Part shown: piece after piece, positions 22,493 to 50,040 of the stretch
Numbering within the stretch: the stretch's first letter is position 1
Layout: each line of letters starts with the position of its first letter
DNA from: an uncultured Bacteroidales bacterium
GTDB lineage: Bacteria; Bacteroidota; Bacteroidia; Bacteroidales; GCA-2711565
Reading direction: 5' to 3'
NCBI GenBank assembly: GCA_942491855.1
Contig: CALOCL010000041.1
Span: 81,024 to 145,023, forward strand
Length of the DNA stretch: 64,000 nt
Program-made: the position numbers and the translations under genes
Notes under the pieces: generated by a model
Told to the model about the DNA's origin: nothing
Seen by the model: only the letters and a program-made list of their open reading frames with translations
The model's database searches: none

Positions 22493-22811
22493 TGCCTGAA
22501 AAAAATATTGTCATTCTGGTTGCGAGAAGTGAAATACCGAAATTTAAATGGTTAAAGGTAGATTCATGCATTCGCAGGAACTACATTCTTGTTTTAAGGG
22601 AAAATTAAAATATCACTCCGTTTAAAACAGAATTTAAAATGCCACCTTCTCGAAACCTTCCTGCTGGAGTAAAGACTTACACGATTTCTAGGAAATTTAA
22701 AAATAATTAACTGCCTATTGGTTTTGAGATAACATGCTGCTTCTTTTTCTTTTTGATGATTCGCAATTGGTGTACTAATAATCAGTACTTTTGCACCTCC
22801 AAAAAAGAACT

Positions 22812-24602
22812 ATGCAATCAATTCGAAATATAGCCATTATCGCTCACGTTGATCATGGCAAAACTACCCTCGTCGACAAGATCATCGCTGAATGTAAAAC
22901 ACTGGATTCAAGAGTGGACGCGGGAGAACTAATCTTAGATTCCAATGATTTAGAACGGGAAAGAGGAATTACCATCCTCTCGAAAAATGTTTCTGTTAAT
23001 TATAAAGGAGTTAAAATCAATATCATTGATACCCCTGGTCACGCCGATTTTAGTGGTGAGGTAGAACGTGTGCTTAAAATGGCTGATGGCGTCTTGCTGC
23101 TGGTCGATGCATTTGAAGGCCCAATGCCTCAAACCCGTTTTGTACTTGGTAAATCACTGGCCTTAGGAATGCACCCAATCGTTGTGATTAACAAGGTTGA
23201 TAAGTTAAACTGTCGCCCCGAAGAAGTCCAGCAGGATGTTTTCGAATTGATGTTTAACCTTGATGCAACTGAAGAGCAATTAGATTTTGTTACTGTTTTT
23301 GGATCATCCAAGCAGGGCTGGATGAGTAATGATGTGAATAAACCAACCACGAATATCATTCCTTTACTGGATTGTATTTTAGAAAATGTACCAGAGGCAC
23401 CTTATGTTGAAGGAACTCCACAGATGCAGATTTCTTCTCTAGATTTTTCAAGTTATGTAGGACGTATCGCTATCGGAAGAATATTCAGAGGGGTTGTTAA
23501 AGAGGGAGAATATTACATCCTGTGCAAGAAAGCCGGAAAACGAAGCAAAGAAAAAATTAAAGAATTATTTATTTTTGAAGGACTGGGTAAAACAAAAGTT
23601 AAAGAAGCAAGATCAGGTGATATTTGTGCCATCGTAGGCATTGAAGACTTTGAAATTGGAGATACCATCGCGGATTTAGAGGCTCCGGAACCATTGCCAC
23701 GTATCGCCATTGATGAACCAACCATGAGCATGTTGTTCGCGATTAACAATTCCCCATTCCTGGGACAAGAAGGTAAGTTTGTTACTTCTAGGCATCTACG
23801 TGATCGTCTTTTTAAAGAAATGGAAAAGAATTTGGCACTACGTGTTGAATCCACTGATTCTGAAGACAAATTTAATGTTTTTGGTCGCGGGATTCTGCAT
23901 CTTTCTATCCTTATTGAAACCATGCGTCGTGAAGGTTATGAATTTCAAGTGGGAAAGCCAAAAGTTATTTTTAAAGAAATTGACGGAATTAAATGCGAAC
24001 CTTTTGAAACTTTAGTTATCGATGTACCAGATGAATTTGCGGGAAAAGCGATAGAACTGGTAACTCAAAAAAAAGGTGAATTGCTCATCATGGAGCCCAA
24101 AAGCGATTTGCAACATCTTGAATTCAATATTCCGGCTCGTGGTTTAATTGGTTTAAGAAACAATGTTTTAACTGCTACTACCGGAACTGCTGTAATGACC
24201 CACCGTTTTAATGGTTATCAGGCCTACAAAGGTGATATCAAAGAAAGAATGGCCGGATCGCTGATTGCTATGGATGGAGGTCAAGCTCTGGCCTTTGCAT
24301 TATTCCGCCTGCAAGATAGGGGCAAGTTTTTTATTGCACCACAGGAGCAAATTTACAAAGGACAGGTGATTGGTGAACATACCCGCGACAACGACCTGGA
24401 GGTTAATGCCACTAAAGGGAAGAAGTTAACCAACATGCGTGCATCAGGTAGCGACGAATCAACCAAGGTTTCTCCAAAAATTACTTTTTCACTAGAAGAA
24501 GCCATGGAATACATTAAAGATGATGAATACTTGGAAGTTACACCTAAGAATTTAAGAATGAGGAAGATTGTTTACAAAGTGGTTAAATTCCAGAAACAAT
24601 AA
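22812..24602 (+). CDS. typA: translational GTPase TypA/BipA
   Basis: IAHVDHGKTT, LERERGITI, DTPGHADF, NKVD, GRGILHLSILIETMRREG, EVTPKNLRMRK; ATG 22812 lies downstream of TACTTTTG. Confidence 0.97.
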   Translation: MQSIRNIAIIAHVDHGKTTLVDKIIAECKTLDSRVDAGELILDSNDLERERGITILSKNVSVNYKGVKINIIDTPGHADFSGEVERVLKMADGVLLLVDAFEGPMPQTRFVLGKSLALGMHPIVVINKVDKLNCRPEEVQQDVFELMFNLDATEEQLDFVTVFGSSKQGWMSNDVNKPTTNIIPLLDCILENVPEAPYVEGTPQMQISSLDFSSYVGRIAIGRIFRGVVKEGEYYILCKKAGKRSKEKIKELFIFEGLGKTKVKEARSGDICAIVGIEDFEIGDTIADLEAPEPLPRIAIDEPTMSMLFAINNSPFLGQEGKFVTSRHLRDRLFKEMEKNLALRVESTDSEDKFNVFGRGILHLSILIETMRREGYEFQVGKPKVIFKEIDGIKCEPFETLVIDVPDEFAGKAIELVTQKKGELLIMEPKSDLQHLEFNIPARGLIGLRNNVLTATTGTAVMTHRFNGYQAYKGDIKERMAGSLIAMDGGQALAFALFRLQDRGKFFIAPQEQIYKGQVIGEHTRDNDLEVNATKGKKLTNMRASGSDESTKVSPKITFSLEEAMEYIKDDEYLEVTPKNLRMRKIVYKVVKFQKQ

Positions 24603-24632
24603 TTATCGGTATTTTATTTAATACAGAAACAA

Positions 24633-24663
24633 AAAAAAGTCGGCTGATTGGGCCGACTTTTTT
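24633..24663. terminator. bidirectional intrinsic terminator
   Basis: AAAAAAGTCGGC-TGATTGG-GCCGACTTTTTT between convergent typA and peptidase genes. Confidence 0.85.
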
Positions 24664-24681
24664 CGCTTAAAAACGAAATTT

Positions 24682-25866
24682 CTATTCCTTAATCTTTTTC
24701 ATAATTTGCTTTGGAATCACATCTTTATGAACATAAATGGATAAGGTTTTGTACAGTACGAATGATTCGGAAACATACTCATATCCTTTGTTCTTACCTT
24801 TTGTTCCCCACGAATTTTTTACGTAGTAGTATAAATTATCAAGCTGATCTTTGGCCATTCCCATAATCAACATGGCGTGATCATCGGTAGTAATAAAATT
24901 ATCGTAGCCAGCCTGACGGAATTCTTGAGTTACTTCCTTTTGTTCAGCCGGAGCGTTTAGGAATTCTTTTTTCTTTTCTTTGTCCATTTTACTTACATCT
25001 TCTTTTGGAAAAGTCCAGATTCCATCCTGACGACCGGTAAATTCATCTCCCATATCACTGGCCCAGGCTACTGAGTAACCTTTTTCAATGGAGTTTTTGA
25101 TGATGCTTCTTAAATCGGCAAGTGGAACATTCATGGCTTTTGCCTGACTCCAGTTATCCGGAACTTCCAACACAAATTCTGAATAGAAAGGGAAGTGGTT
25201 GAAAGAGGTGAGTAAAATATAATCATCCGGATTAAAATCTAAAAACTTGGCAAAAGATTTGGGTGTGTAAGTCTTTCCTTGATACTCGAATGATTTGGGA
25301 GGGGCACCCAACCATGTTCCCAATAATGCTTTAAATCCTTTTTCCCACATCGGAGAAACATAACTTACTTCTTTGTATGATTTGGACTGAGCATCCCATG
25401 ATCTTTTGATTGAAACACTTTTAAGGTAAGCGCTTAGAACCCTGGCAAATTCTTTGTGATTGTGTGTTTCAGTGCCATACTGTAAACCGTTGTAAACAGA
25501 ATTTGGAATAGCCCCATAGATTCGAAACATGTCAGGAACATCGTTTAAGGCACCTCCTTCAGGGAAATTAGCTATGTCGTATCTTTTTAGTCGAACATAC
25601 CTGTTAGCTTTGTAATAATAGGCATTGTATACCGTAAACATGGGCGAAAGTTCATGAACACCCTTTCCTTTGCGAATGGCTTCTGTTTCAATAAATGAGG
25701 TTAAGGCAAATGACCAACAGGTACTGGTTCTGCTTTGATTTTTAATGGGTGTTGTTTTAAGTGTTTTTATCATCTTAAACTCGTAGGAATTTTCCTCCTG
25801 AGCACTTAAGCTTCCGATAAAAAACAAAGAAATAAAAACAATTAATAGGTGATTTTTTAGGTACAT
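24682..25866 (-). CDS. exported C1-family cysteine aminopeptidase (PepC/bleomycin hydrolase-like)
   Basis: Signal peptide; NQSRTSTCWSF (Gln/Cys), DDHAM (His), VKNSWG (Asn). Confidence 0.9.
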   Translation of the reverse strand: MYLKNHLLIVFISLFFIGSLSAQEENSYEFKMIKTLKTTPIKNQSRTSTCWSFALTSFIETEAIRKGKGVHELSPMFTVYNAYYYKANRYVRLKRYDIANFPEGGALNDVPDMFRIYGAIPNSVYNGLQYGTETHNHKEFARVLSAYLKSVSIKRSWDAQSKSYKEVSYVSPMWEKGFKALLGTWLGAPPKSFEYQGKTYTPKSFAKFLDFNPDDYILLTSFNHFPFYSEFVLEVPDNWSQAKAMNVPLADLRSIIKNSIEKGYSVAWASDMGDEFTGRQDGIWTFPKEDVSKMDKEKKKEFLNAPAEQKEVTQEFRQAGYDNFITTDDHAMLIMGMAKDQLDNLYYYVKNSWGTKGKNKGYEYVSESFVLYKTLSIYVHKDVIPKQIMKKIKE

Positions 25867-26111
25867 AACTTTTTAGGTTTAGGATTTTTTACAAATTAAC
25901 GGATAGTAGATTTAAAATAAAAACCAAATCGATCAATGATTTAGTTTTCTTGTCGAAACACAAAAATAAAACATACTTACTTTAAGCTTACAATTTGATT
26001 ATTTTCTGTTTAAAAATATTACTAATCGTAAATTTTTACCTAAATTAAAATTCTAATTTCCTGATATTTATTAAAATAGAAATTTCTTCTTGTTTTTTTA
26101 GAAAAACGCTA

Positions 26112-26119
26112 TACTTTTG
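26112..26119 (+). promoter_or_regulatory. sigma70 -7 element of the arg operon
   Basis: TACTTTTG (TAnnTTTG), 8 nt before the leader ATG. Confidence 0.7.
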
Positions 26120-26127
26120 TCAACTCA

Positions 26128-26238
26128 ATGGTAAAGTCAAAAACATATCAGATATTCAACCAACAGCCGATGCTGGTGGCTGGTACGATATTGCCTTTTA
26201 CCACCACCTTAAGACATAGACGCCCGTTCCGGGCATAA
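26128..26238 (+). CDS. putative Arg-rich leader peptide (36 aa, MVKSKTYQIFNQQPMLVAGTILPFTTTLRHRRPFRA)
   Basis: Translated by hand. All four Arg codons (AGA, AGA, CGC, CGG) lie in the last 8 codons. A hairpin GCCCG-TTC-CGGGC overlaps them and a second hairpin follows at about 26248-26266. Confidence 0.75.
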   Translation: MVKSKTYQIFNQQPMLVAGTILPFTTTLRHRRPFRA

Positions 26239-26328
26239 TTTATTTTTGCGGGGTTACGTACCCTGCCATTTCAACATACATATTCTTATTCATTTTATTC
26301 TTTAGTTAAAGAATCCACTTTTATTATC

Positions 26329-26997
26329 ATGAAAATAACTATTGGTGTGGCAAATAACAGCCACCTCTATTTTGCAAAGGAGATTTGCAAAATGATTGAA
26401 GATGCCTCAAAAATACGAGGCACCGGTATCGCAAAACGTGAGCCAGTTTACATCCGTCAAAAAATTATCGATGGCAAAGCCGTCATTGCAATGGACGGTG
26501 AGAAACTTATTGGCTTTTGTTATATTGAAAGCTGGGAGAAACAAAAATTTGTTGCCAATTCCGGCTTAATTGTTCATCCAGAGTATCGTAAGACCGGGCT
26601 TGCACGAAAAATTAAAGCAGCCATTTTTGACTTGTCGAAACAAAAATTTCCTAATGCCAAATTTTTTGGGATTACCACAAGTCTTGCCGTCATGAAAATC
26701 AATTCTGACCTTGGATACAAACCCGTAACATTTACCGAACTAACTAAGGATGATAGTTTTTGGAAAGGCTGTGAGAGTTGTGTAAACCATGACATACTGA
26801 TGAGAACGAATAGAACTATGTGCCTTTGCACAGGTATGGTTTGTAATCCAACCACGCTGCCAATTAATAATCATCAGGTTCGCAAAAAAGAGTTCTGGAG
26901 TTACTTTAAAACCTTTTTATCTGAAAGAAAAAAACGAATTAGAAATAAAGCAAAAGAATACCCAATCATCAATGAATATCAAAATGAAAAACAATAA
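26329..26997 (+). CDS. GNAT N-acetyltransferase, probable short N-acetylglutamate synthase (ArgA substitute)
   Basis: GLIVHPEYRKTGLA acetyl-CoA motif; FWKGCESC...CLCTGM; first gene of the arg operon. Confidence 0.75.
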   Translation: MKITIGVANNSHLYFAKEICKMIEDASKIRGTGIAKREPVYIRQKIIDGKAVIAMDGEKLIGFCYIESWEKQKFVANSGLIVHPEYRKTGLARKIKAAIFDLSKQKFPNAKFFGITTSLAVMKINSDLGYKPVTFTELTKDDSFWKGCESCVNHDILMRTNRTMCLCTGMVCNPTTLPINNHQVRKKEFWSYFKTFLSERKKRIRNKAKEYPIINEYQNEKQ

Positions 26998-28180
26998 CGT
27001 ACTACTTGCATTTAGTGGAGGCCTCGATACTTCGTACTGTTTAAAATATCTCACTAAAGATAAAAAGTTAACGGTTTATTCGGCCATTGTGAATACAGGT
27101 GGATTTTCAAAACAGGAGCTAAAAGAACTTGAAGAGAAGGCTTATGCTCTGGGTGCCGTGCATCATTCCGCGCTTGAAGAAACCAAGGCCTACTACGATA
27201 AAATTATCAAATATTTAATTTTCGGTAACGTATTAAAAAATAACACTTACCCGCTATCCGTAAGTGCCGAAAGGGTTCACCAGGCCATAGCTTTGGCAAA
27301 GTATGCGAAGAAAATTGAAGCCCGTTACATTGCACATGGAAGTACCGGTGCAGGTAATGATCAGGTAAGGTTCGATCTCATCTTTCAACTCATAGCTCCT
27401 GAAATTGAAATTATCACACCAACCCGGGATTTGAAATTGACCCGTGAATTCGAGATCAACTATCTCTCATTGAATGGAGTGAAGATGGATTGGGAATCTA
27501 CAGAATATTCAATTAACAAAGGACTATGGGGAACAAGTGTGGGAGGAAAGGAAACATTAACCTGCCATCAACCTTTACCAGAAAAAGCTTATCCCAGTCA
27601 ATTGAAGACAAAAATTCCGAAACTAATTAAACTGGAATTTAAAAATGGGGAATTGTGTGGATTAAACAGAAAAAAAATGTATCCCATTGAGATCATCCAA
27701 AAGCTCGATGAAATGGCTGGTGAATACGCTATTGGACGAGATACACACGTGGGAGATACCATCATCGGGATTAAAGGCAGGGTAGGGTTTGAGGCTGCAG
27801 CGGCCAGTATCATCATCAAAGCACATCACCTGCTCGAAAAACATACCCTTTCGAAATGGCAGCTTCATTACAAAGAGCAGATAGCCAGCTGGTATGGCAT
27901 GTTTATTCATGAGGCTCAATACCTTGACCCCGTAATGAGGGATGCAGAAGCCTTTTTAGAATGCACCCAAAAGAATGTTTCGGGTTTTGTGAGTATTGAG
28001 TTGCACCCGTATCGTTTTGAGGTTTTAGGAATAAAATCAGAAAATGATTTAATGAGCTCAGAATTTGGTGAATACGGTGAAATGAATAAAGCGTGGAGCA
28101 GCGATGATGTGAAAGGATTTACTAAAATACTGGCCAATCCAATTCAAATTTTTAATAAGGTCAATAAAATAAAATGGTAG
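26984..28180 (+). CDS. argG: argininosuccinate synthase
   Basis: LAFSGGLDTS, AHGSTGAGNDQVRF, YSINKGLWG, IKGRVGFEA. Confidence 0.96.
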   Translation: MKNNNVLLAFSGGLDTSYCLKYLTKDKKLTVYSAIVNTGGFSKQELKELEEKAYALGAVHHSALEETKAYYDKIIKYLIFGNVLKNNTYPLSVSAERVHQAIALAKYAKKIEARYIAHGSTGAGNDQVRFDLIFQLIAPEIEIITPTRDLKLTREFEINYLSLNGVKMDWESTEYSINKGLWGTSVGGKETLTCHQPLPEKAYPSQLKTKIPKLIKLEFKNGELCGLNRKKMYPIEIIQKLDEMAGEYAIGRDTHVGDTIIGIKGRVGFEAAAASIIIKAHHLLEKHTLSKWQLHYKEQIASWYGMFIHEAQYLDPVMRDAEAFLECTQKNVSGFVSIELHPYRFEVLGIKSENDLMSSEFGEYGEMNKAWSSDDVKGFTKILANPIQIFNKVNKIKW

Positions 28181-29152
28181 TAGCTGGAATAATAGGAGGT
28201 AGTGGATTTGTAGCCGGAGAGCTGATTCGTTGTTTGCTGCATCACCCTGAATTTGAAATCGACTTCATTTACAGTCATTCGAATGCCGGAAAAAAGGTTT
28301 ATGAAATTCATCAGGATATGGTAGATCAGCCAAGCCTGGAATTCACAAATAAGGTAAACCTGAAAGCGGATGTAATTTTTCTTTGCCTAGGTCATGGTAA
28401 TTCAACCCAGTTTTTGAAAAATCACAAGTTTTCTAAAAAAACAAAAATTATTGACCTGAGTAATGATTTCAGGTTAAAAAAGACGGCTGAATTTCAGAAA
28501 AGGAAATTTACTTACGGATTGGTCGAACTAAACAAGTCAGAAATTTCAGCGGCTCAACAATATAGCTAATCCCGGATGTTTTGCGACGGCAATACAACTG
28601 GCAATTTTACCCTTAGTAAAATACAGTCAGACTTTAAATGATATTCATATCCATGCCATTACCGGTTCAACCGGTGCAGGACAAACTTTATCTCCAACAA
28701 CAGCACATAGCTGGAGGAATAATAATCTTTCGGTTTACAAGGCTTTTAAGCACCAGCATCTTTCTGAGATCAAAGAAAGCATTTCAAAGTTTCATGATCC
28801 TGAAAATTCGGAGTTAAACTTTATCCCTTACCGAGGTGACTTTACTCGTGGAATTTTCACCAGTATTTATACTGAAACCAATTTTTGTGAAAAGGAATTA
28901 AAGGCTCTCTATTCCGAATACTATCGTGATGCCAGGTTTACGCATCTAATTGAAAATGATTTGAACTTAAAGCAGGTAGTAAATACCAATAATTGCTTAA
29001 TCCAGGTACAAAAAATCGAGAATAAGGTTTTTATTAATTCAGCCATTGACAACCTATTGAAAGGTGCGGCCGGACAGGCCATACAAAATATGAATCTGAT
29101 GTTTGGTTTAGAAGAATCATTAGGACTAAACCTAAAAGCGAGTTATTTCTAA
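28174..29152 (+). pseudogene. argC: N-acetyl-gamma-glutamyl-phosphate reductase, frameshifted in this sequence
   Basis: GGSGFVAGEL...DLSNDFR in frame 1 ends at TAA 28567-28569. From 28562 another frame reads IANPGCFATAIQL...GSTGAG...HQHLSEI...DNLLKGAAGQAIQNMN to 29152. Confidence 0.92.
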
Positions 29153-29173
29153 AAATATTAATCCAATAAAAAA

Positions 29174-30316
29174 ATGAAAATGTTTGATGTTTATCCACGA
29201 TACCCAATAAATATTGTTAAATCGCAAGGAGTTTATTTATGGGATGATCAGGGCCAAAAATACCTTGATTTATATGGAGGCCATGGCGCGATTTCCATTG
29301 GTCATTCCCAACCGGCTTTTAAGTCGGCCATCCGAAGGCAAATGAATAAGATTGGCTTTTATTCAAACTCCATTGAGATGCCAATACAGCAGGCCTATGC
29401 GAATAAACTTGCCGCATTGAGCTCATACGATAGCTACCGCTTGTTTTTGTGCAATTCAGGAACGGAGGCCAACGAAAATGCCTTAAAACTTGCATCTTTC
29501 CATACTGGGAAATCTCGTGTAATTGCTTTTAAAAATAGTTTTCATGGAAGAACTGCGGCATCATTAAACATAACAGATCAGGCAAATATTTCTGCACCGA
29601 TCAATCAACCGCAATTTCCTGTCGATTTTATTGATTTAAACAATACTAAGCAGTTAAAAGAAACTTTAAAGCAAAACGATATTTGTGCGGTGATTATGGA
29701 AGGCATTCAAGGGGTAGGTGGGTTGGATATGCCCACAAAATCATACCTTAAGTTACTTTCGGAGCTATGTATTGAAAAAGGAATTTTGCTCATTCTGGAT
29801 GAAATTCAAAGTGGATTTGGCAGAAGTGGAAAATTCTTCGCTCATCAACATTTTGATATCAAAGCCGATATCATCACGATGGCAAAAGGAATGGGAAATG
29901 GATTTCCAATCGGAGGTGTACTCATTAATCCGGCCATCCAAGCCAAACATGGAATGCTGGGAACTACTTTCGGGGGTAATCACTTAGCTTGTGCAGCATC
30001 TATGTCGGTTGTTACGGTCATGCAAAAAGAAAGCCTGATTGCAAATGCCGACAAAATTGGAAAGCACCTGGTTAAAGATTTAAAGAAAATTCCTAACATT
30101 AAACAGATTAAAGGAAAAGGTTTGATGCTTGGTGTGGAACTTAATATTCCGGCTAAACCTATCCGGGATAAACTACTGAAAGATCATTTTATTTTTACAG
30201 GAGCATCTGCAAATCCAAACTTGCTTAGAATTTTGCCCCCATTGTCAATTACCCCTGAAGAAATAAACATATTCCCAAAAGCCTTGGATTCGGTTCTAAA
30301 ATCAATGGAAGTTTAA
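29174..30316 (+). CDS. argD: acetylornithine aminotransferase
   Basis: NSGTEANE, SFHGRT, DEIQSGFGRSG, TMAKGMGNG (PLP Lys), GTTFGGN. Confidence 0.92.
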   Translation: MKMFDVYPRYPINIVKSQGVYLWDDQGQKYLDLYGGHGAISIGHSQPAFKSAIRRQMNKIGFYSNSIEMPIQQAYANKLAALSSYDSYRLFLCNSGTEANENALKLASFHTGKSRVIAFKNSFHGRTAASLNITDQANISAPINQPQFPVDFIDLNNTKQLKETLKQNDICAVIMEGIQGVGGLDMPTKSYLKLLSELCIEKGILLILDEIQSGFGRSGKFFAHQHFDIKADIITMAKGMGNGFPIGGVLINPAIQAKHGMLGTTFGGNHLACAASMSVVTVMQKESLIANADKIGKHLVKDLKKIPNIKQIKGKGLMLGVELNIPAKPIRDKLLKDHFIFTGASANPNLLRILPPLSITPEEINIFPKALDSVLKSMEV

Positions 30317-30318
30317 AG

Positions 30319-31101
30319 ATGAAAGAACAATTAGACATCATTAAGATTGGAGGAAATATTATCGACAATGAATATTCGCTGGATGCAGCACTGGAGAATT
30401 TCGCTCAAAACAAAAACCGTAAAATTCTGGTTCATGGAGGTGGCAAAATGGCAACCCGCTTTAGTCAAAAATTGGGGATAAAATCCAATTTGGTGAATGG
30501 GAGGAGGATTACTTCGGATGAAGATTTGGAATTAGTTACCATGGTTTATGCAGGCCTCATCAACAAGAAAATTGTTGCAAAACTGCAAGCATTAAGTTGC
30601 AATGCCATTGGACTTTCCGGCTGTGATGGTGGAAGTATTTTAGCCGAAAAACGTCAGCACTCCGACATTGATTATGGATTTGTAGGCGATATTGGATTTG
30701 TTAATTCAGCGCAAATCGACACGCTAATTACCAATGGTTTTTATCCAGTTTTTTCAGCGATAACCCATGATGGAAAAGGGCAATTACTCAACACGAATGC
30801 CGACACCATTGCGGCCAAACTGTCCATTGCATTTGCTCAAATTTATGAAGTACGTCTGCTTTATTGCTTCGAAAAGGATGGAGTTTTATCTGATCCAGGC
30901 GATGAATTCTCAGTAATTCCATTCTTTGATGAATCCTACTTCAAAGAGTTAAAAATGAATGGTTTTATCAGTGAGGGCATGATTCCAAAATTGGACAATT
31001 GTTTTGATGCCCTTGAACAAGGAGTTTTGGAAGTATTCATCGGCAATTCAGACATCATTAATAACAAAGCACAAAACTTTACTAAACTCACACTAAAATG
31101 A
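30319..31101 (+). CDS. argB: acetylglutamate kinase
   Basis: KIGGN, VHGGG, GRRIT, LLNTNADT, GMIPKL. Confidence 0.95.
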   Translation: MKEQLDIIKIGGNIIDNEYSLDAALENFAQNKNRKILVHGGGKMATRFSQKLGIKSNLVNGRRITSDEDLELVTMVYAGLINKKIVAKLQALSCNAIGLSGCDGGSILAEKRQHSDIDYGFVGDIGFVNSAQIDTLITNGFYPVFSAITHDGKGQLLNTNADTIAAKLSIAFAQIYEVRLLYCFEKDGVLSDPGDEFSVIPFFDESYFKELKMNGFISEGMIPKLDNCFDALEQGVLEVFIGNSDIINNKAQNFTKLTLK

Positions 31102-32159
31102 ATACGATCAAACTTAAAGATGACTCGATTAAACTGCTCAGGAGTCTGATCAAAATCTCTTCATTTTCGGGAGAGGAAGACAGAACAAAAGCTCAACTTA
31201 AATCCTTTTTAGAAAAAAGAAAGATTAAGGTTTTTGAAAGCAAGAATAATATTTGGGCATCTAACAAGCATTTTTCTGTGAATAAGCCAACAATACTGTT
31301 GAACTCTCATCACGATACTGTTAGGCCAAATGAGGGCTATACCAGAGATCCGTTTGACGCAAAAATAGAGAATGCTAAACTGTTTGGTTTAGGAAGTAAT
31401 GATGCCGGTGCCAGTTTGGTTTCTCTGCTTGCATTGTTCCTGTTTTTCTACGAACGTGATGATTTAAATTTCAATTTGCTTTATGCCGCAACTGCTGAAG
31501 AGGAAAGCTCGGGGCTAAATGGCTTAAACAGCATCCTTCAATATTTACCAAAAATTGATTTTGCAGTGGTGGGCGAACCTACTGAAATGCAGTTGGCCAT
31601 TGCTGAAAAAGGATTGTTAGTGATAGATGCAGTTGCACCTGGGATCGCTGGGCACGCAGCCCACACCAATACCGAAAATGCGATTTACAATGCCGTTAAA
31701 GATATTGATTGGATTCGAAATTATGAATTTTCAAAAATTTCAGAATCACTCGGAAAGGTTAAAATGACGGTGACCCACATTATTGCAGGCCAAGCGCATA
31801 ACGTAGTTCCGGGTGAATGTAAATTTGTGATTGATGTGAGGGTTACGGATCAATACACCAATCAGGAAGTTTTTGAGATCATCGATAAAAATACCATGAG
31901 CAATGTAAAAGCCCGTTCCTTCAATTTAAATTCATCTTCCATTGATCCAAATCATGCCATAGTAAGGGCAGGAGTGGAGCTAGGACGAAAAACTTATGGT
32001 TCACCAACTTTATCTGACCAGTCAGTTTTAAATTGTCCATCTTTAAAGCTTGGACCGGGTAAGTCAACACGTTCGCATCAGGCTAATGAATTTATAAAAC
32101 TCGATGAGATTGATGAAGCCATTGATCTTTACATAAAAATATTTGAAAAAATTCTTTAA
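31098..32159 (+). CDS. M20 deacylase (ArgE-like: acetylornithine or acylcitrulline deacylase)
   Basis: NSHHDTV, GSNDAG, AEEE, GEPT, GHAAH, SHQANE; lies within the arg operon. Confidence 0.85.
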   Translation: MNTIKLKDDSIKLLRSLIKISSFSGEEDRTKAQLKSFLEKRKIKVFESKNNIWASNKHFSVNKPTILLNSHHDTVRPNEGYTRDPFDAKIENAKLFGLGSNDAGASLVSLLALFLFFYERDDLNFNLLYAATAEEESSGLNGLNSILQYLPKIDFAVVGEPTEMQLAIAEKGLLVIDAVAPGIAGHAAHTNTENAIYNAVKDIDWIRNYEFSKISESLGKVKMTVTHIIAGQAHNVVPGECKFVIDVRVTDQYTNQEVFEIIDKNTMSNVKARSFNLNSSSIDPNHAIVRAGVELGRKTYGSPTLSDQSVLNCPSLKLGPGKSTRSHQANEFIKLDEIDEAIDLYIKIFEKIL

Positions 32160-32169
32160 ATCTATAAAA

Positions 32170-33453
32170 ATGAAACTTTGGGATAAGGGGTTTAGCACCC
32201 ATCAAAAAATAGAAAAATTCACAGTTGGTAATGATCGGGGTTTGGATTTAAAACTGGCAAAGTACGACATTGAAGCAAGTATTGCACATGCTAAAATGCT
32301 AGCTAAAATTAATATCCTTAATGAAAAAGAAATCGAACTCATTCTTGGTGGTTTAAACAAAATTGGCGAAAACATTGAAAAAGGTTCATTTAAAATTGAA
32401 GATGACTTTGAGGATGTACACAGCAAAATTGAATTTGAATTGATTAATCTGATAGGAGAGACCGCAAAAAAAATTCATACGGCACGCTCTCGGAATGATC
32501 AGGTTTTAGTGGATCTCCATTTGTATGCAAAAAATGAGATCGGTGAAATCAAACAACTAATTGAGCAGCTTTTCAATACGTTGTTAGCATTGAGCGAAAA
32601 ACATAAGGATGTTTTAATGCCTGGTTACACCCACCTTCAAGTGGCTATGCCTTCTTCGTTTGGACTGTGGTTTTCTGCCTATGCGGAATGTTTAATCGAT
32701 GATGTAATCATGCTTGAGGCCGCCTTTAAAATAGCAGATCAAAACCCCTTGGGTTCAGCGGCTGGCTATGGAAGTTCATTCCCTATCGATCGAGAAATGA
32801 CAACAAATCTACTTGGTTTTGAAACCATGAAGTATAACTCGATAGCTGCGCAAATGAGCAGGGGGAAGCTTGAAAAATCCTTATCCTTTGCATTGGCTTC
32901 TGTTGCATCAACCTTATCAAAATTTGCCATGGATGTTTGTTTGTACAATAGCCAGAACTTTAATTTTATAAGCTTCCCCAAGGAATTAACAACGGGTTCA
33001 AGCATTATGCCCCATAAACAAAATCCAGATGTGTTTGAATTGTTAAGGGCCAGTTTCAATAAAATTCAAGCCTTGCCAAATCAAATTACACTCATCACCA
33101 ACAATCTTCCATCGGGTTATCATCGCGATTTTCAACTTTTAAAAGAAGAATTAATCAATGGAATTGATTCAATGAAAGATAATTTAGAGATTTTTAATTT
33201 CATGATTAGACAAGTGATTGTTAATCAAAATATTATGTCTGATCCGATTTATGATAATATTTACAGCGTAGAGGAAGTAAATAAGTTAGTGATGAAGGGA
33301 CAAAGTTTTAGAGATGCTTACAAAGAAGTAGGAAAGAAAATTGCGGGAGGTGACTACAAACCTGACAAAAAATTGCAACATACCCACGAAGGAAGCATTG
33401 GAAATTTAGGTCTTGCAAAAATCCACCAAAAATTTAACCGACACTTTTGTTAG
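32170..33453 (+). CDS. argH: argininosuccinate lyase
   Basis: KLWDKG, IHTARSRNDQV, PGYTHLQ, TTGSSIMPHKQNPD, SGYHRD; ATG 32170 preferred. Confidence 0.96.
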   Translation: MKLWDKGFSTHQKIEKFTVGNDRGLDLKLAKYDIEASIAHAKMLAKINILNEKEIELILGGLNKIGENIEKGSFKIEDDFEDVHSKIEFELINLIGETAKKIHTARSRNDQVLVDLHLYAKNEIGEIKQLIEQLFNTLLALSEKHKDVLMPGYTHLQVAMPSSFGLWFSAYAECLIDDVIMLEAAFKIADQNPLGSAAGYGSSFPIDREMTTNLLGFETMKYNSIAAQMSRGKLEKSLSFALASVASTLSKFAMDVCLYNSQNFNFISFPKELTTGSSIMPHKQNPDVFELLRASFNKIQALPNQITLITNNLPSGYHRDFQLLKEELINGIDSMKDNLEIFNFMIRQVIVNQNIMSDPIYDNIYSVEEVNKLVMKGQSFRDAYKEVGKKIAGGDYKPDKKLQHTHEGSIGNLGLAKIHQKFNRHFC

Positions 33454-48918: not shown

Positions 48919-50040
48919 TTACAAATTATACTTATCCTTTAGAGCCTCTCTGATCCGTTCCAAACCATTTAAAATATATTCTTTTCTTTCTCCTATTCCA
49001 ATTCTAAAATAGTGATCCATTCCATAACAATCTCCTGCTAAAATGAAAACACTCTTCTCTTTTCGAAGCCATTCTGCCAATTCAGTGGAATTTATGTCCA
49101 GGTTATACTTGATGAATAACATACCTCCGGCTTTTGGTGCTACATACTCAAACAAATTACCATAGTGATCGAGCCATTGCTTAACCGCCACTAAATTCTC
49201 ATTTAACATCTTTCTGTTTCGTGCTAAGATCTCCTGACGTTTTGCAGGCCTTAAAGCAATCTCAGCGATATAATTACTCATGATTCCCGCCGTAATGGTG
49301 GTGTAATCGTGATAGGCCCATGTATCTGCAATTAAATCATGAGGGCCAACCAACCAACCTAAACGAAGGCCGGGTAGGGCATAGGCCTTCGAAAGTCCAC
49401 CATTCACCATTACCTTTTCATAGGTTCCATAAAAACTTTCAATCGTTTTGCCGTTTAGTTCAGCTCCGCGATACACTTCATCGGCATAAATCCATGCATC
49501 CACACTCTTTGCAATTGCAATGATTTCTTGCATCTCTGCGGAAGTTAAGGTGTATCCGGTAGGATTGTTTGGATTGCAAATGGCGATCATTTTTGTTTTT
49601 GGCGTCACCAAAGATTTTAATTCTTCCAAATTTGGAGCCCAATTATTAGCTTCAATTAAATGCCATGCCTTAGGAATGCAACCCATCTCTTCGGCAATGC
49701 CCCACATTTGCATGTAATTAGGAACCATCATCACCATTTCATCACCTTTTTCTAAAAGCGTATGGCAAGCGATAAAATTGGCTTCGGCAGATCCATTGGT
49801 TACCAACACATTGTTTTCATCAGCCTGATGGTATAAATCTCCAATTCGTTTTCGCAAAGGAATGGAACCATTGGTTTGCCCATATCCAAGGTAAAGGTTA
49901 TTCAATTCTTCAATTTCCTTTTTGTTCAGCAATTCATTTAGGGTATAGGGATGAAAACCACTTTCGGTTAAGTTAAAATCAACCGTATTTTCATAAATTG
50001 ATTGAACCCTCTCGAGTTCAAAAATTGGAATGTTCAACAT
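48919..50040 (-). CDS. class I/II PLP-dependent aminotransferase-family protein
   Basis: TNGSAEAN, NPNNPTG, DEVYRG, LSKAYALPGLRLGW. Confidence 0.9.
   Translation of the reverse strand: MLNIPIFELERVQSIYENTVDFNLTESGFHPYTLNELLNKKEIEELNNLYLGYGQTNGSIPLRKRIGDLYHQADENNVLVTNGSAEANFIACHTLLEKGDEMVMMVPNYMQMWGIAEEMGCIPKAWHLIEANNWAPNLEELKSLVTPKTKMIAICNPNNPTGYTLTSAEMQEIIAIAKSVDAWIYADEVYRGAELNGKTIESFYGTYEKVMVNGGLSKAYALPGLRLGWLVGPHDLIADTWAYHDYTTITAGIMSNYIAEIALRPAKRQEILARNRKMLNENLVAVKQWLDHYGNLFEYVAPKAGGMLFIKYNLDINSTELAEWLRKEKSVFILAGDCYGMDHYFRIGIGERKEYILNGLERIREALKDKYNL

Follow-up and report, generated by a model that had tools for sequence, protein, structure and literature searches.

A conserved Arg-tailed leader ORF and two-hairpin RNA module as a candidate ribosome-mediated control element of arginine biosynthesis operons in Bacteroidota

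How is an arginine biosynthesis operon controlled in a genome region that lacks a gene for the usual repressor? This question is raised by a stretch of 64,000 nucleotides from an uncultured Bacteroidales bacterium (contig CALOCL010000041.1; referred to as the window), in which a short open reading frame (ORF) with Arg codons clustered near its end precedes an arg operon. Bacterial arg operons are usually controlled by the ArgR repressor together with ARG boxes, and leader-peptide attenuation is classic for the trp, his, thr, leu, ilv and phe operons. An earlier note on this DNA, made from the sequence alone, had proposed that ribosomes stalling on these Arg codons control the operon in cis, either via Rho-dependent termination or via RNA folding. 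The answer we favor, with a probability of roughly 0.6, is that a near-leaderless leader ORF of 36 codons senses charged tRNA-Arg and thereby relieves premature termination of the arg operon.

Each element described in the earlier note was found in its place, including the 36-codon ORF following a promoter with a TAnnTTTG box, the four Arg codons among its last eight positions and the two hairpins at and behind its end, referred to as hairpin 1 (H1) and hairpin 2 (H2; Table 1). The leader ATG is located 8 nt past the end of the TAnnTTTG -7 box, and Arg occupies codons 29, 31, 32 and 35 of 36. Arg accounts for 3.8% of all codons in the long ORFs of the window, where AGA, CGC and CGG represent 34%, 9% and 7% of the Arg codons, respectively. 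Among the 756 small ATG-initiated ORFs on both strands of the window, this leader is the only one that shows at least four Arg in its last eight codons or an RRR run. With a transcription start site at about 26124, as assumed from the promoter consensus, the 5' untranslated region is predicted to comprise only about 4 nt.

The first gene of the operon encodes a GNAT acetyltransferase of a family that is widespread in Bacteroidota and allies, and this gene served as the anchor for comparisons between genomes. These included 80 species-level genome loci with the GNAT gene as well as eight loci of close relatives (72-91% GNAT identity), the closest being metagenome-assembled genomes. An ORF of 36-37 codons was kept in all eight close relatives with invariant ATG, frame and TAA and a sole internal indel of 3 nt; the peptide combines a strongly diverged body with a fixed tail, R-[HNY]-R-R-P-[SF]-[RG]-A. 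When ATG-initiated ORFs of 12-60 codons with at least three Arg in the last eight codons were sought in the 300 nt upstream, an Arg-tailed ORF was present in front of the GNAT gene in 45 of 77 scorable loci, compared to three on the reverse complement and 1.6% of shuffles. Phe, the next-best amino acid in this tail test, reached a score of 5. The leader enrichment is Arg-specific as well as sense-strand-specific. Extension of the search span to 450 nt under the strict rule revealed an Arg-tailed ATG leader in 52 of the 80 loci, and inspection combined with a covariance-model search added another 13 (starting with GTG or TTG, having no more than two Arg codons, or overlooked by the strict rule), so that about 65 of 80 loci carry a leader.

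Representatives of the element were found in Flavobacteriales, Cytophagales, Balneolales and allies. Its carriers include culturable taxa such as Cellulophaga baltica, Maribacter, Flagellimonas, Dyadobacter and Runella (loci L077, L018, L048, L021 and L046). Typical tails were ...RRRRP* in Flavobacteriaceae, ...IPRRR* in Balneolaceae, ...PFRFRSxRT..* in Spirosomataceae and ...RHRRPFRA* in the window clade, the C-terminal Arg cluster being the single feature common to the leaders of all lineages. Since AGA, AGG or CGN is used by different lineages, the conserved entity is the Arg codon and not a nucleotide string. The earlier note had suggested searching relatives for a conserved short ORF with terminal Arg codons and for covarying stems. 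Both were found, and the clustering of Arg codons extends from the fixed tail of the close relatives to the 45 more distant loci.

In all close relatives, as in most Flavobacteriaceae with a single leader, 7-9 nt separate the TAnnTTTG box from the leader ATG, while a distance of 3-9 nt was found for 29 of 71 leaders, the whole window clade included. In Flavobacterium, this box spans positions -12 to -5 relative to the transcription start site (PMC9723704), and the -7 element was placed 4-5 nt from the start site in another study (PMC6847099). The leader AUG is accordingly predicted from the promoter sequence to lie 3-5 nt from the 5' end of the mRNA, or exactly at the 5' end in the distal class of leaders described below. 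Such a near-leaderless arrangement would be unusual in the phylum, because leaderless mRNAs amount to 5.5% (PMC9723704) and 87% of the leaders are longer than 10 nt (PMC6847099).

The end of the leader ORF is part of an RNA module composed of H1, an AU-rich spacer and H2. In the close clade both hairpins are better conserved than the coding body of the leader, with 94% of the cells paired and one GC to AU double change in H2. The consensus fold of 25 Flavobacteriaceae consisted of exactly H1 and H2 with nothing else predicted, and compensatory changes affected five of the 12 pairs, including a CG to AU change in H1, which in this family holds the stop codon inside its GUAA loop. A short GC-rich H1 of 4-6 bp straddles the leader end in every lineage in which both hairpins were called. 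Its stems vary by lineage (GCCC/GGGU with the stop in the GUAA loop, GGUCC/GGACC, CCGC/GCGG and GGCC/GGCC), and the spacer between H1 and H2 in these loci is AU-rich and mostly 10-15 nt long regardless of the stop position. The stems of H2 are wholly different among lineages, with a loop that is nearly invariant as U-R-N-G-U (UACGU, UAUGU, UGAGU, UGCGU or UGUGU). A covariance model built from Flavobacteriaceae was too specific to unite the lineages, matching the window in the right place at E = 7.2, and a plain MAFFT alignment of 20 sequences drawn from different lineages was hence used to count cross-lineage covariation. Each of the seven H2 pairs changed on both sides and 95% of the cells were paired, compared to 60% in shuffles (none of 500 reached the observed value) and 35-56% when the partner was slid.

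A TACGT loop on a stem of at least 6 bp occurred 16 times in 613 kb on two strands, and 14 of these hairpins were the H2 described here. As they are nearly confined to this site and canonical terminators are used elsewhere, H2 was rejected as a generic terminator of the genome. The possibility that the H2 loop mimics a tRNA-Arg anticodon or codon was dropped, since ACG and CGU fit UACGU but not UGAGU, UGUGU or UAUGU, and inspection revealed nothing consistent in the way of complementarity between the loop and other parts of the leader. The guanidine-II (mini-ykkC) riboswitch consists of two hairpins, each with an ACGR tetraloop, and was considered because of the two small GC hairpins and the ACG-containing loop. 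It was rejected on the basis of the H1 loop UUC (GUAA in Flavobacteriaceae) and the H2 pentaloop UACGU (UGAGU in Flavobacteriaceae), and the family did not appear even at E <= 10 in the Rfam search.

Two further structural features have a restricted distribution. In the close clade only, an AU-rich hairpin with two compensatory pairs (AUUCUUU-AGUU-AAAGAAU, 26297-26314 on the plus strand) is located 14-31 nt before the GNAT ATG. In Flavobacteriaceae (L009, L040, L077 and others), H2 is positioned about 40-60 nt upstream of the GNAT gene (e.g. L040:2936-2957) and contains an invariant Shine-Dalgarno-like AGGUGA(G), a type of sequence that is generally avoided in this phylum.

The element is dedicated to the arg operon. 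A metagenome scan with a 22-mer of the Flavobacteriaceae H2 retrieved 80 loci; the GNAT gene starts 39-51 nt after H2 in 73 of 73 loci with enough downstream sequence, and 66 of the 75 loci that extend far enough upstream have an Arg-tailed ATG-initiated ORF ending just before H2. Similarly, the Flavobacteriaceae covariance model matched this same position in each of 34 genome loci (E <= 7e-5) and nothing with a comparable score elsewhere in 567 kb. Searches against Rfam 15 returned nothing better than E = 3.6 in the leader region of the window and no match at E <= 0.1 in ten related loci. Seven leader peptides had no match at E <= 10 in Pfam-A and NCBIfam 20, and four of five leader peptides were absent, not being called as genes, from a collection comprising 15 billion proteins. 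In the full-text literature, no Arg leader of an arg operon was found to be described; this coverage does not extend to subscription journals and leaves an earlier computational mention possible.

The distribution of argR is in line with a division of the locus between two types of regulation. In 7 of the 80 loci (L015, L030, L035, L041, L042, L064 and L071; about 500 nt upstream of GNAT), the GNAT gene is immediately preceded by a gene for ArgR, the end of which is about 40 nt away. None of these seven carries a real leader, the two matches to the leader rule falling inside argR itself, and no argR was detected within 3 kb in any leader-bearing locus. In this sample argR and the leader thus exclude each other at the locus level, and neither was recognisable in eight of the 80 loci. 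In agreement with the earlier note, which had seen no argR gene and no convincing ARG box, tblastn with three Bacteroidota ArgR proteins identified no argR in the 64-kb window, and E. coli-type ARG boxes occur in it at the frequency of chance (20 matches versus 20.3 expected). The sole match nearby (26041-54) has two mismatches, and a divergent box, or an argR elsewhere in the genome, is possible. The note had also named Bacteroidales and Flavobacteriales as the place to look. Flavobacteriales indeed harbor the element, whereas six of the seven argR-adjacent loci belong to Bacteroidales, Marinilabilia or Lentimicrobiaceae; the seventh is labelled only Bacteroidetes.

For the folding analysis, a ribosome was modelled as a 30-nt mask (an assumed footprint) on the Arg codons and the stop codon of the window leader and of 53 leaders. 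The mean probability of H2 in the 53 leaders was 0.71 in the free RNA, 0.69 with the ribosome on the first Arg codon, 0.73 on the last Arg codon and 0.53 on the stop codon, the latter drop arising only where H2 begins at most 13 nt from the stop and is touched by the mask. In the window, H2 was likewise unaffected by a ribosome modelled on the Arg codons. No conserved alternative (antiterminator) pairing was found. The sole alternatives comprise 4-5 bp between the 5' arms of H1 and H2 or between their 3' arms, and substitutions in relatives weaken these pairings and preserve H2. Classical alternative folding was therefore rejected, since the modelled footprints leave H2 unchanged and the alternatives are not maintained. 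For the earlier note this divides the outcome: an Arg leader acting on the arg operon in cis gained comparative support from the conserved ORF, the covarying stems and the exclusion of argR, and its suggestion of control by RNA folding was not borne out.

We propose the following course of events. Transcription from the predicted promoter would yield an mRNA with only about 4 nt ahead of the leader AUG. Under arginine shortage, ribosomes would stall for lack of charged tRNA-Arg on codons 29-35, which include the four Arg codons, and a stalled ribosome, probably with a queue behind it, would melt H1, which is built of those same codons. Stalled and queued ribosomes would cover the leader of about 110 nt including its C-rich 3' half, so that termination before the first gene would be prevented and the operon expressed. 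When arginine is plentiful, the ribosome would reach the stop codon and leave, H1 and H2 would fold, the C-rich and G-poor leader would be exposed and transcription aborted. The terminating agent would most likely be Rho, with H1 and H2 serving as pause or entry signals; H1 and its AU-rich tail acting as a weak intrinsic terminator would be a less likely route. H1 may double as a pause hairpin, its distance to H2 being held at about 10-15 nt.

Rho is favored because of the lack of a switching structure and of an evident canonical terminator, the C over G skew of the leader, and the logic of tnaC and speFL, in which an arrested ribosome masks rut RNA (PMC12360218). Across the loci, the C/G ratio was 1.5-1.8 in the ORF and 4.9 in the 25 nt after H2, compared to 1.0 ahead of the promoter. 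In the 24 nt that precede the first Arg codon, C accounted for 28% and G for 16%, and the 25 nt after H2 contained 24% C and 5% G.

A number of considerations weigh against the proposed mechanism. Control 5' regions of the same loci already have a C/G ratio of 1.5, so that the skew of the leader is only moderately stronger, and G-poor leaders are typical of this Shine-Dalgarno-less phylum; as evidence for Rho-dependent termination the skew is weak. A canonical terminator is not apparent, as H2 in the window is followed by CAUUUCAACAU and the tail of H1 begins with AUAA. Although the latter continues into a U-run (AUAAUUUAUUUUU) and a permissive terminator scan flags H1 as terminator-like, neither hairpin has a clean U-tract, as the earlier note had stated. 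Moreover, it is not obvious how H1 acting alone as a terminator would respond to arginine: its 5' arm is no further than one footprint from the Arg codons, and a closely following ribosome would block H1 whether stalled or not. The nearly invariant H2 pentaloop is left unexplained by the model, and the absence of argR is established locally, i.e. for the 64-kb window and for 3 kb at the other loci. Translation of the leader, the direction of regulation and the termination step are all deduced from sequence. In addition, argC of the window is split into two frames by a 1-nt insertion near position 28554, which three close relatives with an intact argC of 325 aa do not share. The operon may be decaying in the window genome, with argC a pseudogene, or the frameshift may be a sequencing or assembly error; the comparative argument is untouched by it.

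With regard to the pentaloop, it is possible, if doubtful, that H1, the AU spacer of 10-15 nt and H2 form a ribosome-gated expression platform that does not refold and whose loop docks RNA polymerase, a Nus factor, Rho, an RNase, another protein or conceivably arginine. The presence of a ribosome on the Arg codons would then determine if the module assembles. If this were true, much of the Bacteroidota would control arginine synthesis by a mechanism without a described counterpart, and from a near-leaderless sensor ORF.

A different output of the same Arg-codon sensor, at the post-transcriptional level, appears unlikely. H1, spacer and H2 could represent an RNase processing or stability site, with cleavage between the two hairpins and H2 then serving as a protective 5' stem-loop, or could control access of ribosomes to the GNAT start. 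Stalling would in this case alter cleavage or translation and not transcription. Two hairpins flanking a single-stranded AU segment are the classical layout of RNase E/G-type sites in E. coli, and the module matches it in that its two stable hairpins enclose a single-stranded, AU-rich segment whose length is fixed. H2 furthermore forms in all modelled states, as would be expected of a constitutive 5' protective hairpin, no terminator is evident, and the hairpin 14-31 nt before the GNAT ATG could play a role in start access. This hairpin, however, is not conserved beyond the close clade, pairing between the module and the GNAT initiation region is absent, and nothing in such a model predicts the direction of the effect.

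A classical attenuator of the trp/his type, in which H2 or H1 serves as an intrinsic terminator and ribosome stalling at the Arg codons allows an antiterminator to form in its place, is improbable. The order of leader ORF and hairpins, the flagging of H1 with AUAAUUUAUUUUU by the simple scan and the U-run that follows H2 in a few lineages (e.g. UUUUUUCUG in L017) are what such a system would display. The modelled H2 probabilities, which hardly differ between the free leader and one occupied on the first or last Arg codon, and the short alternatives eroded by substitutions that keep H2 intact argue against it. In most lineages the tail of H2 is pyrimidine-rich and not U-rich, e.g. GCAAAAC in Flavobacteriaceae, and a textbook terminator elsewhere in the window (24632-24664) indicates that the organism does use canonical terminators.

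Equally little probability is assigned to an arrest peptide that senses free arginine via the nascent chain, such that high arginine stalls the ribosome at or near the stop codon and turns the operon off. Nascent chains sense a ligand in the fungal arginine attenuator peptide, TnaC and SpeFL. Distant lineages share F-T-P or P-F-T before the Arg run (...SFTPxRRRP, ...NFTPTPLRRIPRRR, ...LPFTTTLRHRRPFRA and ...HTTPFRFRS), synonymous codons vary beneath the S-F-T-P positions in the Flavobacteriaceae alignment, and in the window clade a ribosome positioned at the stop codon would extend to the base of H2. The peptide ends in Pro in Flavobacteriaceae (RRRP*), a residue that in E. coli slows termination when it is C-terminal. 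However, the F/T/P bias may just as well stem from selection for RNA that is rich in pyrimidines and free of G, and the peptide body is not conserved even among close relatives. The terminal residue varies by clade (A, P, R, V or I), as does the distance between the stop codon and H2 (8-13 nt versus 19-21 nt), and the sole universally conserved property is the number of Arg codons, which is the hallmark of sensors of tRNA charging.

It is likewise improbable that the element is an RNA-only unit with an incidental ORF, in which the module binds a protein, RNA polymerase or a small molecule and the Arg codons are a by-product of GC-rich stems (CGC, CCG, CGG). The near-invariant H2 loop on completely changing stems would suit such a unit, as would the retention of the module in tandem-type loci whose proximal copy has an ORF of 8-10 codons or no ATG ORF. 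Arg codons are also present upstream of H1 and outside the stems, however (AGA CAU AGA in the window, CGU CGU in Flavobacteriaceae). ATG, frame, stop and the distance from promoter to ATG are conserved, the enrichment is strand- and Arg-specific, and no Rfam family was matched, including guanidine-II mini-ykkC with its superficial likeness to H2. Finally, a chance ORF with chance hairpins and no function, for which one could invoke only the many short ORFs of AT-rich intergenic DNA (756 in the window), can practically be discounted, as conservation, specificity and covariation far exceed the controls.

A second, distal class of Arg leaders was observed almost exclusively in Flavobacteriaceae. 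In 12 of the 13 distal leaders scored, such a leader, e.g. MNLLKNKIRNTVPSMFVRLRRRS, precedes the H1-H2 unit (L037 at 2691-2860, L076, L079, L043, L059, L078, L045, L049, L075, L072, L031 and L025). Where recognisable, the TAnnTTTG box lies 3-4 nt before the ATG of the distal leader, which would render it truly leaderless. Its A-rich 5' codons (AAAAAUAAAAUACGU) are complementary to ACGUAnAUUUUUAUUUUUU, located 25-35 nt past its stop in a segment that ends in UUUUUAUUUUUU, and the resulting helix encloses the whole distal ORF and ends in a long U-tract. The mean duplex z-score of the distal leaders was -3.0, with 10 of 13 below -2. The helix looks like a terminator that a ribosome inside the loop would prevent, and together with its U-tract it ties Arg leaders to terminator-like structures in the phylum. 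The proximal unit in these loci keeps H1 and H2 with an ORF of 8-10 codons or none. A comparable long-range helix, joining the 5' end to the sequence behind H2, was considered for leaders of the window type and rejected, being absent there (mean z +0.2, window +1.4) and significant only for the distal leaders; as modelled, the window does not use the enclosing-helix design.

The features of the leader region and of the operon are listed in Table 1. The gene order GNAT-argG-argC-argD is common to the relatives as far as their loci extend. No carbamoyltransferase gene (argF/argF') is present between argD and argB, and a crude motif scan (SxRTR with HPxQ, or HCLP) of the open frames of at least 150 codons in the window revealed none; this gene must be located elsewhere in the genome.

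Table 1. Position of the leader, the RNA module and the operon genes in the window
Feature	Position	Strand	Description	Basis
Promoter, Bacteroidota sigma-A type	26090..26119	+	-33 TTG 26090-92, N19, -7 box TACTTTTG 26112-19	read from sequence
Leader ORF	26128..26238	+	36 codons/aa, MVKSKTYQIFNQQPMLVAGTILPFTTTLRHRRPFRA*; between promoter box 26112-19 and first gene 26329	translation
Candidate sensor codons	26212..26232	+	four Arg within 8 codons of the stop: AGA 26212-14, AGA 26218-20, CGC 26221-23, CGG 26230-32	
Hairpin 1 (H1)	26222..26234	+	GCCCG-UUC-CGGGC; codons 32-36; stop codon starts 2 nt past 3' end	minimum free energy and centroid folds
AU-rich spacer	26235..26247	+	AUAAUUUAUUUUU, 13 nt, contains stop codon	
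Hairpin 2 (H2)	26248..26266	+	GCGGGGU-UACGU-ACCCUGC; pentaloop U-R-N-G-U 26255-26259	minimum free energy and centroid folds
Tail to GNAT start codon	26267..26328	+	62 nt, mostly unstructured, C-containing, G-poor (C 18%, G 3%)	
Operon, putatively regulated	26329..33453	+		NCBIfam matches
GNAT acetyltransferase	26329-26997	+	first operon gene	NCBIfam
argG	26972-28180	+		NCBIfam
argC	28174-29152	+	frameshifted in the window	NCBIfam
argD	29174-30316	+		NCBIfam
argB	30319-31101	+		NCBIfam
ArgE/DapE-family deacylase	31098-32159	+		NCBIfam
argH	32143-33453	+		NCBIfam

Several other observations were made in the window. The GNAT product has a Cys cluster after the GNAT domain (residues ~145-215; C148, C151, C165 and C167 invariant and C172 present in at least 90% of 25 homologues) followed by a Lys/Arg-rich tail, which could be a metal-binding or regulatory module. 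A SAM riboswitch (Rfam RF00162, 5538-5647 on the plus strand, 76.7 bits, E = 3e-16) was the sole Rfam family to reach its gathering score in the 64 kb. The intrinsic terminator at 24632-24664 is canonical and bidirectional, with an A-tract, a stem of 13 bp and a U-tract, and separates the convergent genes 22791-24602 (plus strand) and 24682-25866 (minus strand). A His-rich small ORF with an HHHH run (49660-49755, plus strand) resembled a his leader and was rejected, as it lies inside a gene of 373 aa on the opposite strand (48919-50040).

Control by the ArgR repressor has its textbook example in arginine biosynthesis, which does not figure among the classical attenuated operons; it would join them if the element works as inferred. 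ArgR and the leader would then be phylogenetic alternatives at one locus within one phylum. The sensor ORF would begin practically at the mRNA 5' end, in a phylum whose translation initiation does not involve Shine-Dalgarno pairing, and an output module without a terminator/antiterminator switch could provide a tractable entry to ribosome-coupled, possibly Rho-dependent control, which has hardly been explored in Bacteroidota. In practical terms, the results supply a rule for annotating a hitherto unannotated small gene and RNA element, present in at least about 140 of the 168 loci examined (species-level and metagenome), and potentially a compact part that responds to arginine, for use in genetic tools for Flavobacteria and Cytophagia.

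Among known systems, the trpL, hisL, thrL, leuL, pheL and ilvL attenuators share with the arg element a short ORF that heads a biosynthetic operon at its 5' end, a cluster of end-product codons near the end of this ORF and hairpins that overlap and follow it, and they are likewise conserved as a unit with the operon. As a sensor, the arg leader would work in the manner of the trp, his or leu leader peptides. They differ in that here the amino acid is arginine, the ORF is near-leaderless and neither a terminator/antiterminator alternative nor a clean U-tract is present. As the antiterminator alternative and a clear terminator are both missing, the element is set apart from this classical family. 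Within Bacteroidota, the Bacteroid-trp RNA encodes a Trp leader. This motif (Rfam RF01692) is listed as a Bacteroidetes motif (PMC2864571), and leader peptides have been described for ilvE and hisG in Flavobacterium psychrophilum, where the hisG leader sequence ends in a GC-rich hairpin, AACCCGUUUGA...UCAAACGGG, unlike the arg leader (PMC9723704 and its supplement). The enterobacterial pyrBI and pyrE attenuators resemble the element in having a leader ORF that runs into a hairpin, which the ribosome physically blocks without need for an antiterminator. Their signal, however, is RNA polymerase pausing at low UTP, and their hairpin is a canonical terminator with a U-tract.

The Rho-dependent attenuators with an upstream ORF (uORF), tnaC-tnaAB, speFL-speF and mgtL-mgtA (PMC12360218), come close in that a ribosome arrested at the end of the uORF would mask adjacent C-rich RNA and thereby prevent premature termination with no terminator hairpin involved; in the case of tnaC, an alternative fold is not required either. 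In these systems arrest is brought about by a ligand together with the nascent peptide (Trp, ornithine) or by Pro codons, whereas in the arg leader it would be due to a lack of charged tRNA-Arg; the two conserved hairpins of the arg element have no counterpart there, and a role of Rho is inferred here. Ribosome pausing at Arg codons of a small uORF as a read-out of the arginine supply has been described for Salmonella speF orf34 (PMC6386406) and Staphylococcus aureus rbfL (PMC13009471), the latter occluding the next ribosome-binding site (PMC13009471). Their targets are polyamine synthesis or a biofilm regulator and not arginine biosynthesis, and they show no similarity to the element in sequence or structure.

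The fungal arginine attenuator peptide (Neurospora arg-2, yeast CPA1) also places a uORF before an arginine biosynthesis gene and couples the arginine level to expression via the ribosome. There, however, the peptide sequence senses free arginine, the stall blocks scanning, which is restricted to eukaryotes, and its sign would be opposite; by eye, sequence similarity to the leader was not apparent. None of these three, speF orf34, rbfL and the fungal peptide, controls a bacterial arg operon or resembles the element. The closest parallel in position is ArgR/ARG-box control itself, which in the argR-GNAT-argG layout of Bacteroidales concerns the same operon with the same first gene and occupies the same place directly upstream of GNAT; ArgR is a protein repressor acting on DNA, whereas at the leader-bearing loci this place is taken by a cis-acting leader ORF and its RNA.

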